Assembly (NCBI GenBank): GCA_031413715.1
Contig: JANOFO010000010.1
Location: forward strand, 302 to 64,301
From: Minisyncoccota bacterium
GTDB lineage: Bacteria; Patescibacteriota; Minisyncoccia; Phycocordibacterales; UBA9973
Length of the DNA: 64,000 bases
Reading direction: 5' to 3'
A model generated the notes under the pieces. The model did not search any database. It had not been told where the DNA came from and was given only the letters and a program-made list of their open reading frames with translations. Position 1 is the first letter of the stretch, and each line of letters opens with the position of its first letter. A program made the translations under genes and the position numbers. Shown here in pieces: positions 28,681 to 35,403 of this stretch.

Positions 28681-29754
28681 ATGAAATTACATTGTCGTAT
28701 CTGCGGAACACCGATGCAAAAATGGGGCCATACGAGGCAAGGCAAGCCCCGATTTTTTTGTCCAAACTGCAAAAAGACGGCGACTCCCCAGCGTGATGAT
28801 GTCGAGCTTCGACAAACGGTTCATGAGATGAAAAAATGGCTTGGCGGAAAAGAAAGTCTGAGCCACATGGCTGCGCAATCTCATGTTACTCGCCAAGCAT
28901 TATGGAAACGCTTCCACCCTGTTATGGAAGCTGCTTCTATAGAACCTGATATGCCAGACCTGATCAAAACAAAAATGTTGATCGTTGATGGAACATATAT
29001 CCATGGACATACACTCTGTGCTTTGATCGCCGTCGACGAGTTCGACAAGATTTACTGGAAATTTGCATCATATGAATCATGCGCTGTGTGGATGAAATTT
29101 CTATCCTCGTTCGTCGAACCTGAGATCATTATCATGGATGGGCAGAAAGGATTGTTTTTAGCTGCCAAAACTCTATGGCCAAAAGTTGCGATTCAGCGAT
29201 GCCAATTTCATCTTGTCGCATTCGCTATTCAATATATCGGCAGACGCCCAAAAGAAAAAGTTGGTCAAGCGTTAATGGATATCCTCTATACACTCAAAGA
29301 TGCGAAAACAAAAGAGAGTCGTGATTTATGGATACGTTCATATCGAAAATGGGAAGAGACATATGAGATGTTAATTTCAGCGAAGGATACTAATAAGCAG
29401 TACCTTCGTCCTCGATTGCGTGGTGCACGATTAATTATTCGAAGAGCTCTTCCATACCTATTCACATTTCTTGATCATCCGGGATCACCCAATACTACTA
29501 ATTTAGTTGAAGGTTGGATTAATGGCGCTATGGCTGAAGCGTTGCGACTTCATCGAGGATTACGAATTAATGAAAAGAAAACGCTTGCAACCGTCATCCT
29601 TTCTGATCTGATACGCAAAAAGACGAGGGATAAATCTGTGATGGAAAGATTGAAATACGCTGCTCGCGTACGCAATGCACGAAGATTTGGAAAAAGGAAA
29701 TCGAGAAGTAATATAATACAACCTGCACTTGTTAATACAATGAAGTTGTTCTAG
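28681..29754 (+). CDS. DDE transposase with N-terminal zinc ribbon (ISL3/IS256-like catalytic signature)
   Basis: CRICG...CPNC ribbon; LIVDGTY, IIMDGQKG, and WPKVAIQRCQFHL resembling the IS256/ISL3 'P.A..QRC.FH' motif. Confidence 0.55.
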   Translation: MKLHCRICGTPMQKWGHTRQGKPRFFCPNCKKTATPQRDDVELRQTVHEMKKWLGGKESLSHMAAQSHVTRQALWKRFHPVMEAASIEPDMPDLIKTKMLIVDGTYIHGHTLCALIAVDEFDKIYWKFASYESCAVWMKFLSSFVEPEIIIMDGQKGLFLAAKTLWPKVAIQRCQFHLVAFAIQYIGRRPKEKVGQALMDILYTLKDAKTKESRDLWIRSYRKWEETYEMLISAKDTNKQYLRPRLRGARLIIRRALPYLFTFLDHPGSPNTTNLVEGWINGAMAEALRLHRGLRINEKKTLATVILSDLIRKKTRDKSVMERLKYAARVRNARRFGKRKSRSNIIQPALVNTMKLF

Positions 29755-29845
29755 TTTGGGTTAAGTAAACATTAGTGTTGGTTTTTAATTTGGGCGGCAC
29801 GAAATTCAACACAAGTGTTTATTAAAAATATCCTTGTTTAAAAGC

Positions 29846-29875
29846 ACAAAACACCTCTTGAAGAGGTGTTTTGTG
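29846..29875. terminator. stem-loop acaaaacacctctt-gaa-gaggtgttttgt, probably a bidirectional terminator
   Basis: Perfect 13-bp stem flanked by A/T runs. Confidence 0.4.
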
Positions 29876-30298
29876 TGTATCAGGATCTTCTACTTAGGTC
29901 TTCTAAAGAAGCCAGACCATATATTCATTCAAAACAGAGAAAAGTACTTATATATTAAGTATTTTTCTCTATCTTGACCAACACTTTAGTTGACTTAGGC
30001 CTAAGGACTAGATAAAAACAAACTAACTCCAGATTTCTCTGGAGCTGATTTGCCATTATCAATAACCCTACAAAACTATGAACCACATGAAGGGATAAGT
30101 CTGCCGACAACTTACCCCATGTTTAGCATAGAAATTATTTCAAAAGAAGATAAGGCAGGGTAATTTGCGCAATATGCAAACTCTGGAGATTAAGTAATCT
30201 TTTTTAAAGATTTAGATATTTAGGTCTGCCCGATACGGTAATAAAACTTGACAAATAGAAAATAGTTTGTTAGAATGCAAGTAGCCAATTGGTTTTTA

Positions 30299-31345
30299 CT
30301 AATTAATCCACAAACCAAAATAATTTCTTAACCTCATCGATAGCTTGTATGCATTCGCATGAGACAGTACTCCCAGATATGAATGGAGTGTCGCTACTAT
30401 CTTCTCCTTTTCGACCTTTCCTTTCGTGTAATCTTTAATCTTAGCTTCAAACTTTCTAATAACTCGTTTTTTAGTTCTCTTTCGCAGTAAAGTATGATTT
30501 GGGAAAACCACATATCCTAAGAAATCTACTCCTTTTGCGTACGTTAATATCTCAACTTTGTTCGGATGCAGATTCACTCCTAATCTATCTCTCAAAAAAA
30601 CATTCATTGGCTTGATAAGTTTCTCAAGATACTCCTTATCCCTTGAAACAATTATAAAATCATCAGTATATCGGGCATAATAACGAACCTTTAGAATGTG
30701 CTTCATATATTGATCAAACTCATTCATGTATACGTTGGCAAAAAGCTGTGAAGTTAAGTTGCCTATCGGCACTCCTTTCTTCTTGAATAGATCTGATTGC
30801 GTTCCACTGTAGCTTTCAACAAGATTATCTAAAAGCCATAATAAGTCAGCATCCTTAATCCTCCTTCGTAGAATTGACAACAGAATATCATGATCAATCG
30901 AATCAAAGAATTTCCTCACATCGCATTTGAGCGCATAGCATGTCTTGGTATTATTCTTGCTCTCTTTGCGCAGCATTCCTTGAACCACTTCCACTCCTTT
31001 ATGCGATCCCTTGCCAACACGGCAAGAGAATGATTCAGGAATGAAAGTAGGATCAAACACATGATTGATCGTAGACATAATTGCATGATGCAGAACTCTA
31101 TCACGAACAGTCGCTTTGTGAATATGCCGCAGCTTCGGATCGGAGATATAAAATCCGGTATACCCGGAATGCACATACGTTTTAGTTTTTAACTCCCTTG
31201 ATAATTGAAAAATATTATGTTCCAACTCCCTCTCGAATAAAAGGACATCGGGTTTTCTACCTTTACCAACTCTAAATTCCTTCCATGCTTGAAATAGCGT
31301 TTCAGGTTGAACAATCTTATTAAATAAATCTCGATATATAATCAT
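30299..31345 (-). CDS. DGR reverse transcriptase
   Basis: RT motifs present, including KFFDSIDHD and YTDDFIIV (YxDD); the DGR-diagnostic IGNLTSQLFANVY replaces the group-II QGxxxSP motif; start at MIIYRDLFN. Confidence 0.8.
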   Translation of the reverse strand: MIIYRDLFNKIVQPETLFQAWKEFRVGKGRKPDVLLFERELEHNIFQLSRELKTKTYVHSGYTGFYISDPKLRHIHKATVRDRVLHHAIMSTINHVFDPTFIPESFSCRVGKGSHKGVEVVQGMLRKESKNNTKTCYALKCDVRKFFDSIDHDILLSILRRRIKDADLLWLLDNLVESYSGTQSDLFKKKGVPIGNLTSQLFANVYMNEFDQYMKHILKVRYYARYTDDFIIVSRDKEYLEKLIKPMNVFLRDRLGVNLHPNKVEILTYAKGVDFLGYVVFPNHTLLRKRTKKRVIRKFEAKIKDYTKGKVEKEKIVATLHSYLGVLSHANAYKLSMRLRNYFGLWIN

Positions 31346-31696
31346 ATGAATGAAAACGACATACCAGTGCTGAATAAATCGTACGAACTCTACAAGTTGT
31401 TCCACGAATATCGTAAGGTTGTTCCCAAACAAGATCGCTTCACGATTTATGAACGAAGTGAGCATGTCATGCTTGGAACTATAGAACTTCTACTCGAAGC
31501 AAGCTATGGAGACAAAGCGAGGAAGTTGGTAACACTTGAAAAAGTAAGCGTGAAACTCAATGTGCTTCGTTTTCTTATTAGGTTAATGAAAGAAACAAAG
31601 ACATTTGATACCAAGAAATATATAGCACTACAAGCACTCATCGACGAGATCGGTCGCATGACCGGCGGATGGATGCGATCGCTCATAAACAAATAG
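31346..31696 (+). CDS. avd: DGR accessory variability determinant Avd (four-helix-bundle family)
   Basis: 116 aa; YELYKLFHEYRKVVPKQDRFTI...LRFLIRL...LIDEIGRMTGGWMRSL matches the Avd / 23S-IVS four-helix-bundle pattern; divergent from the RT. Confidence 0.65.
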   Translation: MNENDIPVLNKSYELYKLFHEYRKVVPKQDRFTIYERSEHVMLGTIELLLEASYGDKARKLVTLEKVSVKLNVLRFLIRLMKETKTFDTKKYIALQALIDEIGRMTGGWMRSLINK

Positions 31697-31719
31697 AATA
31701 AATAGAAAAGAGAATATTG

Positions 31720-31754
31720 CTACAAAAGGTATCCGAGAGGATACCTTTTGTAGT
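31720..31754. other. 15-bp perfect stem-loop (ctacaaaaggtatcc / ggataccttttgtag) between avd and TR
   Basis: Seen in sequence; lies 3' of TR on the minus strand. Confidence 0.4.
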
Positions 31755-31770
31755 GCAAAAAGAGATACTT

Positions 31771-31888
31771 CGGAGAACCCGGACGCAGAACCGTAATTGG
31801 CATTCGCATTGGACACATCGTTCGCGTCCATCTTAACCTTGTCGTCATTGAAGTTGACGTTCGGAGCATGACCGAAGACACCATCGCC
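31771..31888 (-). repeat. DGR template repeat (TR), 118 bp
   Basis: Aligns to 32272-32389; all 17 mismatches are T on the plus strand (A on the minus strand) in this copy against C/A/G in the other. Confidence 0.8.
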
Positions 31889-32174
31889 ACCCGGAATTTA
31901 CTCCCATCAATCCGAGCCACCAAAAATTGAAACAGTATATCGCATCTGATTCTTTCTTTTGAATTTAATTCGACAACACGCGAGGTGCGTTTGTCTTTGA
32001 TAGGAGTAAGCAGTATCTCATTTACTCGGGTTCGCTCTCGCAAGCCGTAGCCGGCGGGATTCTGACTCGTTTCTCGCAAAGAGAAAGAGTTCGGCGACAG
32101 TCATCCGTAGACGGCTGTGCATGAGCCTATACTCACTGTCACTATAGCAGATTTCAGTAGTAAAAATAGTAAAA

Positions 32175-32205
32175 GGGTTATCCGATTGTGGATAACCCTT
32201 TTTTT
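32175..32205. terminator. hairpin gggttatcc-gattgt-ggataaccc followed by T7, bidirectional terminator between the target gene and TR
   Basis: Perfect 9-bp stem with T-run on the plus side and T-rich sequence on the minus side. Confidence 0.4.
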
Positions 32206-32257
32206 AAAAAATTCGAATTCAAGATTAAAGAAATCAAAAGATCCGAGAACTCAATAT

Positions 32258-33193
32258 TCAAGATCCAATCGCGGAGAACCCGGACGCAGAACCGAAATCG
32301 GCAAACGCATAGGACACACCGTACGCGCCCATCCCAACCTCGCCGTCATGGAAGAAGACGCGCGGAGCATGACCGAAGACACCATCGCCCTTATCACTGT
32401 ACTCATCACCGGGGCAATCAATCCAAAGATCGTTGACATTGCTCAGGCGTTCAGGATGAGTGAAGATTAATGTCAGCACTTCGTATGCGCCGAGGCCAAA
32501 CTCACCGAACATAACTTCCCGGGCTCTTCTGACACTTTTTCCGGCATGATTGATGCCGAACTGAAACGGAACGAGCAGAACTCCACTCGGACGGCCTTGT
32601 GCGATCCATAATGCTTCTGTGTTCTCAGTAAGCTCACTTCCACGGCGATAATATTGCCGGCTCCATTTGCCTTCACGGTAATCTTGGAAATTTCCTCTGG
32701 ATTTTTTAATAAATCCCTGGATACGCTCCATCGGTTTTCCGTAATCCATAGCCGGATCATTTTCATGGTTGGTAAACATGCTTTCATCAAGCACGATTAC
32801 GCCCAGTCCTTCACCGAGGGATTTCTGGGAAACCATAACTTTCTGCTTTTCGGTAAGCGTCCAATTCACTTCCCGTCCCCAATCGTAAAATTGAAGAAGG
32901 GTAATTTGCAAATTAACGGGTTTAGGAACCCGATAGCCGGAAAGATAACCGTAGGCCGAGGTGACCTGCTCTTTGATGTACTTGTCCGGGGTGGCCATGT
33001 CCCGCAGGATTTCTCTGGCAGCTTTTTCCAAACGATTTTTAAAATCACTTGGTTTCATAATGATACGTTGCTGGATCAGATCTCGTGAGAGATTTGATTC
33101 TGTTGTAACCACAGCTTTAACAGCTTGTCTGCCAAATTCTACAATGCTGTCGCGTTGGTCAGGTGTCATGGATGTCATCTTGGTAGTGATCAT
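32258..33193 (-). CDS. DGR target (variable) protein with C-terminal VR, probably a C-type-lectin/FGE-like fold
   Basis: VR occupies the last ~40 codons and ends 12 nt before the stop. Confidence 0.65.
   Translation of the reverse strand: MITTKMTSMTPDQRDSIVEFGRQAVKAVVTTESNLSRDLIQQRIIMKPSDFKNRLEKAAREILRDMATPDKYIKEQVTSAYGYLSGYRVPKPVNLQITLLQFYDWGREVNWTLTEKQKVMVSQKSLGEGLGVIVLDESMFTNHENDPAMDYGKPMERIQGFIKKSRGNFQDYREGKWSRQYYRRGSELTENTEALWIAQGRPSGVLLVPFQFGINHAGKSVRRAREVMFGEFGLGAYEVLTLIFTHPERLSNVNDLWIDCPGDEYSDKGDGVFGHAPRVFFHDGEVGMGAYGVSYAFADFGSASGFSAIGS
32272..32389 (-). repeat. DGR variable repeat (VR)
   Basis: 118-bp near-copy of TR differing only at TR adenines. Confidence 0.8.
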
Positions 33194-33419
33194 CTTGTTT
33201 TAATTTATAAATGAACAAATATCTCAACAACCCTGAGATTTGGGTACTATAAAATAAAGATTACAGTGGTTATATTATATCATATATAAGTCAGATTGTA
33301 AAGCTCATTTAACCTTTAAAATCAAGCCATTTAGAGGAAATAATTACCAACATGTTGCCAACAACTCGAGCCTGGGGCTGCTTTTTAAGCTCCTCGTGCA
33401 CTAAAACCTCGCACGACCG

Positions 33420-33434
33420 TGTGATCCCGGCAGG
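33420..33434. repeat. 15-nt direct repeat of the tRNA-Arg(GCG) 3' end (tgtgatcccggcagg)
   Basis: Identical to 33681-33695. Confidence 0.5.
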
Positions 33435-33682
33435 GTAATCTCGCCTACGGCGCGTGATTGGTGGTTTGTAAACAAACAACACCAATCTTTCGCTTCCTGC
33501 ACGCGACTGAAGCAGTTCAGTCGCTCGGGAACGATTTACTTGTGACTACAAATATTTCCATCTCGTCAGCCGGAAATTTCGCAGCCCGCCCCTCGTGGTT
33601 TTGCGTGGTCGCAAAACATCACTGCGGTCATCACAAAGTGTAAAAGACCTCCGCAGGGAGCTCTTTTTGAATACGCGCTTTG

Positions 33683-33754
33683 TGATCCCGGCAGGAATCG
33701 AACCTGCATCGCAACTTCCGCAAAGTTGCGTCCTATCCATTGAACGACGGGACC
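33683..33754 (-). tRNA. tRNA-Arg (anticodon GCG, unusual for bacteria)
   Basis: Acceptor ggtcccg/cgggatc (one G-U), D-arm gttc-aatggata-ggac, anticodon stem caact/agttg with loop ttgcgga, T-arm gcagg-ttcgatt-cctgc; 72 nt. Confidence 0.55.
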
Positions 33755-33757
33755 AAT

Positions 33758-33997
33758 TTACTTTAACTTATTTTTTAAATATCTTCTCCCTGCGGCACTT
33801 TTCCAATACTTTTCTTTCTTTACAGCTTCTTCTTTTGTCTCACATTGCTCGTGATAGGCAATTTCAAAAGGAATATAGTTCTTGATTGATTTTGTCATTC
33901 CTGAATTATGTTGAGATAATCGTACTTTTAAGTCTTCAGAAAATCCCTTGTAATAGAAATTCTTGATCTTACTTTTCAAAACATAAACATAATACAT
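33758..33997 (-). CDS. small GIY-YIG nuclease domain protein (UPF0213-like)
   Basis: YYVYVLKS...YYKGFSEDLKVRLSQHNSG is a classic GIY-YIG motif; 79 aa. Confidence 0.7.
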   Translation of the reverse strand: MYYVYVLKSKIKNFYYKGFSEDLKVRLSQHNSGMTKSIKNYIPFEIAYHEQCETKEEAVKKEKYWKSAAGRRYLKNKLK

Positions 33998-34003
33998 ATG
34001 TGT

Positions 34004-34070
34004 GTCCTATCCCCGCCCGACTGAACGATCACTCCAGTCGTTCGGGCGGGCATTGAACGACGGGACCAAT
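34004..34070. repeat. duplicated 5' portion of tRNA-Arg(GCG) (9 nt + 19 nt) interrupted by a 39-nt GC-rich hairpin insertion
   Basis: gtcctatcc[ccgcccgactgaacgatcactccagtcgttcgggcgggc]attgaacgacgggaccaat compared with 33730-33757. Confidence 0.5.
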
Positions 34071-34128
34071 ATGGTTTAATCTATCTCAAAAGAAAGATAT
34101 TAGCAAGTTCTTTTATAGACTCTCGCTT

Positions 34129-35403
34129 GTGAATTTGTTAAACTTTTATAGTAAATATATGTACCGATTTGTTGCAATTTTCCGAAGCGAAACAATATAC
34201 TTCAAAGAGCATATTAGCCCTAATGTAAGGCGAGTCTTTACTTCTAATATTTTTAAGTCAATTTCTAGTCCATTAATGACGACATTTCTTAATGCGTTCG
34301 TTTTCCGGGCTAGTGGGACACTTGCTGGCGTAGCAATATATAACGTGGGGCTCTTTGTATGTTTACCGATAGCATTTTATATAAACGGTCTTTTTCTGCG
34401 CCACATAAATATTCGCATAATGCTTGCTTGGGGAGCAATTTTAGGTGGTGGTGCAAGTATCGCATTCGTTTTAGCAGGACCTACGACCATGCTTACAACG
34501 TTCTTATATGGATGTGCTTGGGGTTTAGGTAATGGTTTTTATTGGGCAAATCGTAATTATCTCGAATTTCAAGAGACGATCACATCAATGCGCCAATACT
34601 TTTATGGGCTAATTTTATCGATTACATCAATTGCAAACATCGCAGTTCCATTTATTGCTGGATGGTTTATTGTCATAGGAGAGCGCTTGAATTTATATTC
34701 AACAAAACATGCTTACTGGATAATTTTCGGTTTTTCTTTTATTCTTTTACTGATATGTGGGGCTATCATTCGCAGAGGACAGTTTGATTCACCTGCGCCT
34801 CCTGCTATTTCACGTTTGAGAATACGTCCTTTTTTAAACACTCGTAGACTTCTTTCGATAGCGTCAGGATTCACTGACGGCACAATTTCACTTACTGTGG
34901 TTCTACTTGTGCTTCTTTTGGTTGGAAATGAAGGAATTTTGGGAAGTTTGACGGGATTGGTATCTTTTGCAACTGCCGTTGCTATGTATTTATACGGAAG
35001 ATATGTAAACATAAAATATGAACTTCGAACAATGCTTGTTTCAAGTATTGTTTTTTTCCTAGCAGCAATATGCCTGATTGTTTTACCAGGTATTATAGGG
35101 ATTATGCTATATATTCTTCTGGTTGGAATCTCAACAAACTTTTTTGCGATGTCATCGAGTCCCCTACTCTTTTCCCTCGCTGAAACAGAGATGGGTCAAG
35201 ATAGTACAATGCGCTATTCTTTTATTTTTGACAATGAGCTTTTTCTTAATATCGGAAGGCTTATTGCTATAGGTATTCTTTTTCTATTTTCTTACTTTCA
35301 AACTGAAACATCTACTCTTATTTTCGGATCAGTAGCTATAGCGGGACTGCATCTCTTTATCATGGCGGCCTTTTTTGCACGCAATCAATACTCCCTAAAA
35401 TAG
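34129..35403 (+). CDS. polytopic membrane transporter (MFS-like, ~12 TM)
   Basis: Hydropathy pattern; Gly-rich helices. Confidence 0.45.
   Translation: MNLLNFYSKYMYRFVAIFRSETIYFKEHISPNVRRVFTSNIFKSISSPLMTTFLNAFVFRASGTLAGVAIYNVGLFVCLPIAFYINGLFLRHINIRIMLAWGAILGGGASIAFVLAGPTTMLTTFLYGCAWGLGNGFYWANRNYLEFQETITSMRQYFYGLILSITSIANIAVPFIAGWFIVIGERLNLYSTKHAYWIIFGFSFILLLICGAIIRRGQFDSPAPPAISRLRIRPFLNTRRLLSIASGFTDGTISLTVVLLVLLLVGNEGILGSLTGLVSFATAVAMYLYGRYVNIKYELRTMLVSSIVFFLAAICLIVLPGIIGIMLYILLVGISTNFFAMSSSPLLFSLAETEMGQDSTMRYSFIFDNELFLNIGRLIAIGILFLFSYFQTETSTLIFGSVAIAGLHLFIMAAFFARNQYSLK

Follow-up and report, generated by a model that had tools for sequence, protein, structure and literature searches.

A chromosomal diversity-generating retroelement of Patescibacteria with a predicted structured leader RNA before its template

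Does a 118-nt repeat pair lying beside a reverse transcriptase (RT) gene in a Patescibacteria (CPR) genome belong to an intact diversity-generating retroelement (DGR), and what RNA would carry its template? We addressed this question within a window of 64,000 nt, the whole stretch of DNA that was analysed. The reading that we favor, with a probability of about 90%, is an intact chromosomal Patescibacteria DGR, comprising a target gene that bears the VR, a separately promoted DGR RNA of ~420 nt, an inverted avd gene and an RT, and whose homing mechanism we infer. The features are collected in Table 1.

Table 1. Features of the DGR locus, in window positions
Feature	Position	Strand	Remarks
DGR reverse transcriptase, 348 aa	30299..31345	-	Pfam RVT_1; PDB 8ub7_A match
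avd, 116 aa	31346..31696	+	opposite to RT, TR and target; Pfam bAvd
Post-TR stem-loop	31720..31753	.	perfect 15-bp stem, 4-nt loop, 18 nt after TR; inverted repeat I9
Predicted TR-enclosing long-range duplex, 3' strand (AGUAUCUCUUUUUGC)	31755..31769	-	starts 2 nt after TR
TR	31771..31888	-	26 adenines, codon positions 1 or 2 only, 7 AAY codons
Predicted DGR-RNA leader 3' domain, P4 and hairpins P5, P6	31895..32026	-	covariance model R2; 12-bp closing helix P4; ends 7 nt before TR
Predicted TR-enclosing long-range duplex, 5' strand (GUAAAUGAGAUACU)	32012..32025	-	RNAduplex with TR 3' flank
Predicted DGR-RNA leader 5' domain, helices P1-P3	32019..32138	-	covariance model R1
Predicted extended -10 for DGR RNA, TGcTATAGT	32141..32149	-	ends 2 nt before conserved RNA start
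Intrinsic-terminator-like hairpin after target gene	32171..32202	-	13-bp stem, then T run
Target gene, 311 aa	32258..33193	-	helical N-terminal region; putative C-type-lectin-like C-terminal domain carrying VR
VR	32272..32389	-	target codons 269-307; substituted codons span 278-300
IMH-like VR 3' end	32272..32294	-	identical to TR end 31771-31793; read from sequence
Promoter-like site, target gene	33274..33302	-	TTTACA-17-TATAAT with TG, ~80 nt 5' of ATG; consensus match

The repeat pair and the protein-coding genes

The original prediction described a 118-bp repeat whose second copy falls in the last ~40 codons of a 311-aa minus-strand ORF, and took the locus to be a DGR. The repeat lies exactly where it was placed, with 86% identity and a spacing of 501. 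Realignment, with the template bases tabulated, returned 17 mismatches in 118 positions, every one of them at a minus-strand adenine of the first copy (TR), and none of the 92 non-A TR positions differs from the VR. Seen on the plus strand, where the first copy has T, these are eight T>C, seven T>A and two T>G changes. Seventeen mismatches placed at random over the 118 positions would all hit the 26 adenines with a probability of 2.2e-14. The TR adenines are distributed with 10 in codon position 1, 16 in position 2 and none in position 3, and up to 1.4e15 protein variants could be reached through them. The VR is in frame and stops 11 nt short of the TGA. Both repeats close with the same A-free 23 nt of 70% G+C, directly after which they diverge. 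No second VR was found in the window. Exact-pattern scans of JGI metagenome contigs gave no other VR variants, when the VR was searched with N at all TR-A sites, and no match to the IMH-like end.

The RT aligns across residues 4-340 with bRT of Bordetella phage (8ub7_A, 328 aa; E 9e-45), which is its best solved homologue; group II RTs reach E 5e-20. The DGR-diagnostic block and the YTDDF motif anticipated for this protein are both present (IGNLTSQLFANVY, of the form IGxxxSQ and here IGNLTSQ), and R74 and I181 of bRT, known adenine-mutagenesis residues, have conserved counterparts. Scans of Pfam and NCBIfam returned no DGR-specific RT model for this protein, and the top NCBIfam matches, to group II and Drt/retron models, stay far under their cut-offs. 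The start of the RT also needed correction. The ORF is open to 31465, but the additional 40 codons overlap avd without homology support, and the form in the database record has 348 aa; the start is thus most likely at 31345.

The Avd-like gene does adjoin the RT gene, as predicted, but its orientation required correction to the plus strand, opposite to the RT. The two genes stand head-to-head with their start codons back to back (CAT then ATG), and avd is inverted in all 48 related loci in which it was detected. Avd scores 63.5 bits against Pfam bAvd (cut-off 40) and 79.1 bits against NCBIfam DivGenRetAVD, just under the cut-off of 80, with a weak match to Bordetella Avd/Bbp7 (4dwl; E 0.006). 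Adenine-only mismatches, an RT matching bRT and an Avd passing Pfam bAvd thus support the DGR interpretation. With adenine-only TR/VR differences, a DGR-type RT, an in-frame VR and Avd, the locus is a DGR, and it is probably intact and active.

The target protein has no Pfam domain (FGE-sulfatase and DUF1566 included), signal peptide or membrane helix, and no sequence similarity to solved structures. It belongs to a family of ~1,800 proteins restricted to Patescibacteria, with a conserved scaffold and a hypervariable C-terminus, and the end of the VR encodes a conserved YGSASGF motif. In a confident model of the target, the top fold matches are to CLec proteins and are weak; Foldseek of this model against the PDB gave nothing significant.

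On the minus strand the order is target, TR, reversed avd and RT. Thirty-nine related Patescibacteria loci have this gene order, again with A-biased TR/VR pairs. In the text of Wu et al. [quoted passage not shown] Decay is seen in some related loci. The target of L001 is inverted, and of the 35 TR/VR mismatches of that locus 18 fall at non-A sites; the RT of L063 is fragmented; and at L065 a target homologue is present, but neither RT nor Avd lies within 4 kb of it.

The predicted RNA around the template

The ~245 nt 5' of the TR (32138-31895, minus strand) appear to form a conserved multi-helix RNA, preceded by a predicted extended -10. Covariance models for its two domains match the window in the expected place and order. 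R1 scores 33.5 bits over the full model length (E 7.7e-6 over 630 kb) and R2 reaches 42.5 bits (E 9.3e-6) with a window copy free of non-canonical pairs. In the R1 domain, 92% of the cells are paired across 36 loci, with compensatory changes in 33 of 34 pairs; across 51 loci the R2 domain has 95% of cells paired and compensatory changes in 22 of 23 pairs. Taken together, 55 of 57 pairs are compensatory, and the 92-95% of paired cells compares with 63% in shuffles. Covariation of this kind indicates that the leader is a conserved, highly structured RNA and not a mere spacer.

All 33 scanned loci carry a TAnnnT hexamer, which in 20 of them ends exactly 2 nt upstream of the point where the R1 model begins; TGn often stands directly 5' of it (alignment A3). 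A sigma70-like site at 31963-31934 was also considered as the TR promoter. It was rejected because it falls inside the conserved P4-P6 domain and because the conserved -10 lies at 32141-32149.

Neither the window nor five related loci gave an Rfam match at the gathering threshold. RT-7 RNA (RF03028) was discarded as the identity of the leader, with a 22-bit fragment in the window against a cut-off of 116.8, as was RT-16 RNA (RF03019), which reaches 24-25 bits in L021 against a gathering score of 50 and has no match in the window. Matches to BTnc231 and GibS are far under gathering and simply reflect the terminator hairpin. RT-16 is one of the 'RT' motifs in Weinberg et al. (2017, PMC5737381), structured RNAs that, like the leader, adjoin RT genes; RT-10 of the same study corresponds to the Bordetella Sp region. 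The sub-gathering RT-16 alignment in L021 covers exactly the 3' leader domain, and the two share a AAUAAAAUACA-stem, a stem-GGUG and a closing helix followed by UACAUU.

The leader is also predicted to pair with the TR 3' flank over 13 bp (RNAduplex -14.7 kcal/mol). This pairing is locus-specific: the cognate flank ranks first of 40, and cognate against non-cognate permutation over the 40 loci gives p<5e-5. A local leader hairpin (CUUCA...UGAAG) would compete with the long-range duplex, and covariation in L040, L020, L039 and L010 favors the latter. It is possible that the RNA may switch between the two.

Between the TR on the minus strand and the end of avd on the plus strand lies a terminator-like stem-loop, which is a candidate Avd-binding stem-loop. 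A hairpin just past the detected TR end occurs in 38 of 40 loci, and 28 of these 38 have in common CUCC..GGAG and UUUU with covarying inner pairs. These flank stems were counted by an anchor-based approach; RNAalifold predicted no pairs, owing to misalignment of the variable stems by MAFFT. Handa et al. (bioRxiv 10.1101/2023.10.23.563531) described a stem-loop just 3' of the TR and an upstream-downstream duplex around it. Both are predicted here, in the order opposite to that in Bordetella.

Alternative explanations

The locus could be a decayed relic that has kept its parts and lost homing, with a frozen VR. Decay of this kind is seen among related loci (L001, L063 and L065), and the two JGI metagenome contig scans found no population variants of the VR. 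Nevertheless, the absence of any mismatch at 92 non-A positions counts against a frozen VR, since a frozen element would gather such differences, as in L001. The RT ORF, which keeps its catalytic YTDD and motif residues, is intact, and so are Avd, the predicted leader helices, the enclosing duplex and the hairpin. We therefore regard a relic as unlikely. A plain segmental duplication of a gene 3' end, beside an unrelated group II intron or retron-type RT, would fit the identity of the NCBIfam RT matches, all far below cut-off. It is refuted by the adenine-only mismatches (P 2e-14) and by the homology to bRT (E 9e-45, where group II RTs reach 5e-20; the motif is IGxxxSQ and not the group II form); the adjoining Avd and the recurrence of the cassette in 39 loci also oppose it, and its probability is negligible.

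The genomic neighborhood bears on whether the element is carried by a phage or another mobile element and serves host switching by varying a receptor-binding protein. The element has a Mutator-family transposase to one side and, to the other, a GIY-YIG gene and a tRNA-Arg of which duplicated fragments are present; many DGRs are phage-borne (PMC8144416). Conversely, no phage structural family was found among the large ORFs scanned against Pfam, the neighbors are cellular (PolA, PBP1, PilM, P-type ATPase and ABC1 kinase), and the target lacks a tail-fibre domain. Moreover, CPR clade-2 DGRs are reported to be almost wholly cellular (PMC8144416). The specific case of a tRNA-integrated island found no support: the tRNA-Arg fragment repeats are local only, with none beyond the RT, and no distal tRNA repeat encloses the DGR. 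A mobile origin thus appears even less probable than a relic, and an intact chromosomal DGR remains the preferred reading.

Proposed mechanism, comparison with known DGRs and significance

For the intact chromosomal DGR, we propose an RNA of ~420 nt made up of the ~245-nt structured leader, the 118-nt TR, a short flank that base-pairs with the leader, and a terminal stem-loop; from these elements we infer a minus-strand transcript running from ~32135 to ~31715. On the model of the homologous Bordetella phage system, this structured RNA would be bound by RT and Avd, and the long-range duplex would close the TR into a loop. Complementary DNA would be copied from the TR, from a presumed priming site, with random nucleotides opposite the 26 adenines, and would then replace the VR, the A-free IMH-like 3' end marking the boundary. 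Homing could in this way recode 17 codons (270-300), which would lie on a putative C-type-lectin-like surface, and so yield up to ~1e15 protein variants. Binding of a ligand by the target and present homing activity are likewise presumed.

One close counterpart is the DGR of Bordetella phage BPP-1 (mtd-avd-TR-brt; complex PDB 8ub7 series). Its RT is homologous over the full length (E 9e-45) and shares IGxLTSQLFANVY, YxDD and the residues equivalent to R74/I181. Both elements also have an Avd accessory protein, adenine-only TR/VR differences, a VR at the gene 3' end, in a CLec-like domain that is putative here, and an A-free, GC-rich IMH-like end. However, avd lies 5' of the TR in BPP-1, whereas here it is on the opposite strand, between TR and RT. 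The 140-nt Sp of BPP-1 is 3' of the TR; here the structured RNA of ~245 nt is 5' of it. After the TR, the duplex strand comes before the stem-loop, the reverse of the Bordetella order. BPP-1 is phage-borne, while the present element is cellular and its target has no tail-fibre identity. In sequence, the target is also unlike the CLec variable proteins of other DGRs (Mtd, TvpA 2y3c and FGE-like targets), its family being Patescibacteria-specific.

The CPR/DPANN DGRs (Paul et al. 2017, as cited in the text of PMC5758913; clade 2 of Roux et al. 2021, PMC8144416) have Patescibacteria hosts, as here, and the same avd/TR/RT core, with no known difference. CPR DGR targets are reported to be without a recognisable Pfam or transmembrane domain, which is also true of the 311-aa target. 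The element is therefore ordinary for Patescibacteria and a DGR of established type.

A broader reading, which we put forward tentatively and at somewhat less than even odds, is that the CPR/DPANN DGR clade uses a rearranged, undescribed DGR RNA. In such an RNA, a six-helix domain of ~245 nt 5' of the TR, with its own extended -10, would replace the 3' Sp scaffold; the leader-flank duplex would close the TR, and a U-tract stem-loop would form the end. It would represent a new family distant from RT-16, and the inverted avd would be a genomic consequence of this layout.

CPR DGRs are well documented, and one more cassette leaves the picture unchanged. The function and site of action of their targets are left open in the literature (PMC8144416); for a family of ~1,800 members that is confined to Patescibacteria and has neither signal peptide nor membrane anchor, the model with CLec-like matches is a starting point. 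What the present analysis adds is the leader RNA, which deserves follow-up. Together, the leader, promoter, TR-enclosing duplex and post-TR hairpin likely make up the full DGR RNA of the clade. Reconstitution of a CPR DGR from RT, Avd and the ~420-nt RNA thereby becomes designable, and so does a direct comparison with the Bordetella ribonucleoprotein, in which the scaffold RNA is on the other side of the TR.

Repeat pair and protein components

A direct-repeat search covering 29000-35000 found one long direct repeat, 118 nt in length, 86% identical and with a spacing of 501, which bears out the template repeat (TR) and variable repeat (VR) of the original prediction. The mismatches had been claimed to be limited to template adenines, and on realignment all 17 lie at T of the plus strand (A of the minus strand) in the first copy; the second copy carries C at eight, A at seven and G at two of these plus-strand positions. 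The first copy has 26 minus-strand A positions, and none of its other 92 positions differ. The chance that 17 random mismatches would all fall on the 26 A positions is 2.2e-14. Homology ends abruptly on both sides of the repeat. Scanning the window on both strands, with any base allowed at the A positions, revealed no further VR; thus, the diversity-generating retroelement (DGR) has one VR.

The VR is in frame and occupies codons 269-307 of the 311-aa target, at its C-terminal end as predicted, with 11 sense nucleotides between its end and the TGA. The TR adenines occupy codon positions 1 (10) and 2 (16) and never position 3, seven TR codons are AAC or AAT, and the substituted target codons span 278-300. 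The 17 adenine-containing codons allow about 1.4e15 possible protein variants, and a stop can arise by mutation only at the two AAG codons. The final 23 nt common to both repeats are free of adenine and have a G+C content of 70%, matching in appearance what is expected of an IMH/IMH* pair (the A-free 3' ends of VR and TR).

The reverse transcriptase (RT) ORF matches Pfam RVT_1. Among solved structures 8ub7_A comes closest, with E 9e-45 across residues 4-340; from its sequence we take this 328-aa reverse transcriptase to be the Bordetella bRT. Group II intron RTs reach 5e-20 at best. In the alignment, IGNLTSQLFANVY faces IGSLTSQLFANVY of bRT and YTDD faces YMDD, confirming the DGR motif block and catalytic motif read from the sequence. 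R74 and I181 of bRT, residues with a role in adenine mutagenesis, are kept. The RT ORF is open as far as 31465. However, the 8ub7_A alignment begins at residue 4 when the RT is taken as 348 aa long, those of related loci begin at residues 1-8, and the public collection entry for this RT is a 348-aa protein. The start is therefore assigned to 31345, and the 40 extra codons are probably untranslated.

Besides its Pfam match, Avd scores 79.1 against NCBIfam DivGenRetAVD (cut-off 80) and weakly matches Bordetella Avd (4dwl, E 0.006). The predicted adjacency to the RT holds, as the two ATG codons directly abut (CAT/ATG), but avd lies on the strand opposite the RT and all other DGR parts. Apart from this strand and the RT start, the prediction of a complete DGR stands. 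A consensus scan of the region found no promoter-like site ahead of the RT. The region's best sigma70-like match (TTGACA-17-TAGAAT plus TG, 11/12) lies just past the RT stop, on the strand opposite the RT and pointing to avd about 1.07 kb away.

Coordinates of the DGR, its RNA elements and neighboring features
Feature	Position	Strand	Remark
Mutator-family (IS256-like) transposase ORF	28681-29754	+	flanks DGR on RT side
Palindrome	29845-29875		perfect, 15 bp
Sigma70-like match	30248-30276	+
RT	31345-30299	-	348 aa
avd	31346-31696	+	Pfam bAvd 63.5 bits, cut-off 40
Post-TR hairpin	31753-31720		perfect 15-bp stem
TR	31771-31888	-
R2 match	32026-31895	-	42.5 bits, E 9.3e-6; 51 loci matched overall
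R1 match	32138-32019	-	33.5 bits, E 7.7e-6; 36 loci matched overall
-10-like hexamer TGCTATAGT	32149-32141	-	directly 3' of target terminator hairpin
Target terminator hairpin	32202-32171	-
VR	32272-32389	-
Target ORF	33193-32258	-	311 aa
tRNA-Arg(GCG)	33682-33754	-	tract 33420-34067
GIY-YIG ORF	33758-33997		79 aa

Related cassettes and the target family

A genome scan with the RT gave 62 loci, nearly all from Patescibacteria, with identities up to 62%. In 48/48 loci with a detected Avd homologue, avd sits immediately upstream of the RT and on the other strand. An A-biased TR/VR pair is present in 39 of these 48, arranged as in the window: target with VR, about 300-400 nt, then TR, reversed avd and RT. 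Wu et al. (PMC5758913) state that the B3 layout accounts for 90% of their CPR set, and a CPR-restricted DGR clade and DGR enrichment in CPR genomes have been reported (Roux et al., PMC8144416). Given this shared order and the CPR literature, the cassette is a typical CPR DGR.

The target has no sequence match in Pfam, NCBIfam or PDB. Its homologues at E<=1e-3 number 1,798; among the best 120, most are about 290-320 aa long, and those with a named source are from Patescibacteria. In an alignment of 41 members the scaffold is well conserved (QFGxxHxGxSVRRAREV, LTHPERL, DLWIDCxGDEY), and a hypervariable stretch coincides exactly with the VR, closing with a conserved YGSASGF. Fold comparison gave 7.6 for the Bd2740 C-terminal domain, 6.6 for Lcl, 6.1 for intimin, 5.7 for both SUMF2 and PvdO, and 5.2 for the DGR protein TvpA. 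Foldseek placed similar proteins on top without significance, so a CLec fold is taken as likely for the modeled target. Hydropathy indicated no membrane helix or signal peptide, as reported for CPR targets (PMC8144416).

Among the RT-related loci, a target of this family occurs in L001 only, and therefore targets and RT lineages are not strictly linked. Other members adjoin Avd and RT (L063, L064) or stand alone (L065). One lies beside a fragmented RT (L063:1941-4873), and another has no RT or Avd within 4 kb (L065:4001-4957); part of the ~1,800-member family is thus probably no longer diversified. L001:3058-4605 holds the closest RT relative (62%), with its target inverted relative to the TR. 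Its TR and VR are only 73% identical, 18 of the 35 mismatches being at non-adenine sites, and it is probably a decaying DGR.

A conserved leader RNA beside the TR

The target-to-TR interval of 383 nt has alignable counterparts across related loci (65-80% nucleotide identity over 180-330 nt), despite a locus G+C spread of 0.28-0.56. RNAalifold on 16 leader regions predicted 54 pairs, 43 of them with compensatory changes. We built covariance models for the 5' half (R1) and 3' half (R2) of the leader, and in a 630-kb search space their matches fall at the same place in many loci. Both window matches are full-length and adjacent, R2 ending 7 nt before the TR; the R2 copy has no non-canonical pairs and the R1 copy about ten. 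Paired cells amount to 92.4% for R1 and 94.9% for R2, against 63% in shuffled and about 35-51% in slid controls, with compensatory changes in 33/34 and 22/23 pairs. Each alignment was fitted to its own model, which raises the pairing somewhat. Even so, the comparison with slid controls and the diversity of pair types make the predicted structure convincing.

R2 also matches two DPANN archaeal loci, where it lies immediately 5' of the TR (L049:213-312 and L060:4786-4889; Woesearchaeota, Nanoarchaeota), whereas the Bacteroidales DGR loci L054-L057 lack it. All 33 loci examined carry a TAnnnT hexamer, often with TGn in front of it; in 20 of them it ends exactly 2 nt ahead of the R1 start.

No Rfam match reached the gathering score in the window or five related loci; the window gave only a 22-bit RT-7 fragment match (cut-off 116.8). 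RT-16 (RF03019) aligns exactly onto the R2 domain of the related locus L021, sharing several single-stranded motifs, at a sub-threshold 24-25 bits (gathering 50). RT-1 to RT-19 are motifs close to RT genes; RT-10 was placed in the Bordetella TR-RT interval, and DGR membership of others was speculated (Weinberg et al., PMC5737381). The leader may therefore be distantly related to a motif that is catalogued but unexplained.

A hairpin starts 1-18 nt past the detected TR end in 38/40 loci. In 28 of the 38 it takes the form CUCC...GGAG, with covarying pairs inside the stem and UUUU after it. The window and its closest relatives have instead a hairpin whose stem stands between an A-tract and a T-tract. 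Transcripts of the TR and, from the other direction, of avd could both end at this hairpin. Its stem (ACAAAAGGTATCC...GGATACCTTTTGT) resembles that of the post-target hairpin (AAAAGGGTTATCC...GGATAACCCTTTT), a similarity that may have arisen by chance or be left over from the duplication that made the TR.

The short segment between TR and hairpin has its complement in a conserved stretch of the leader immediately 5' of P4, the closing helix of the R2 domain. The consensus pairing is between AAAUGAAG and CUUCAUUU. The window has GAGAUACU opposite AGUAUCUC, with five more pairs besides (predicted -14.7 kcal/mol). Both segments change together between loci (e.g., L040, L020, L010, L028, L033). 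In an all-against-all test, cognate pairings averaged -6.0 versus -3.9 kcal/mol for non-cognate ones, 0/20,000 permutations reached the cognate mean, and the window's own flank ranked 1 of 40 against its leader. Because this complementarity is locus-specific, the TR is predicted to be a loop closed by a duplex beside P4. The leader UGAAG that pairs with the flank has an alternative partner, CUUCA, a few nt upstream (L021:4303-4335 and equivalent sites in relatives), and the Rfam RT-16 alignment shows this local hairpin too. The two pairings exclude each other and could act as a conformational switch.

In the Bordetella RNA, an Avd-binding stem-loop directly follows the TR, and the RT-binding elements all lie inside the 140-nt Sp, 3' of the TR; stem-loops and upstream/downstream duplexes were predicted in 207/278 DGRs, CPR included, within a region reaching from 40 nt before to 100 nt after the TR (Handa et al., bioRxiv 10.1101/2023.10.23.563531). 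The window's predicted elements fit this scheme but depart from it in three ways. The large structured part is found 5' rather than 3' of the TR, the upstream duplex strand is ~120 nt ahead of the TR, and after the TR the duplex strand precedes the stem-loop. We propose that the leader would serve as the RT-binding scaffold, and the post-TR hairpin as Avd-binding element and also terminator.

Genomic setting and activity

The neighborhood is cellular (PilM, PolA, class A PBP, P-type ATPase, ABC1 kinase), with no indication of a prophage. The palindrome lies between the transposase and the RT. Beyond the target are a GIY-YIG gene and a tRNA-Arg, fragments of which are duplicated. The first 17 nt of the tRNA recur exactly at 34051-34067 and the last 15 nt at 33420-33434 (chance expectation 0.04 or less), and a 40-nt GC-rich hairpin breaks the upstream 5' fragment. 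The GIY-YIG ORF follows this fragment and is therefore located between it and the full tRNA. The arrangement resembles the outcome of nested insertion events at a tRNA gene.

The zero non-adenine differences and the intact genes and RNA elements suggest an active DGR, in contrast to the decayed TR/VR pair of L001. The element belongs to a well-known kind, and its conserved leader RNA is the part worth follow-up.
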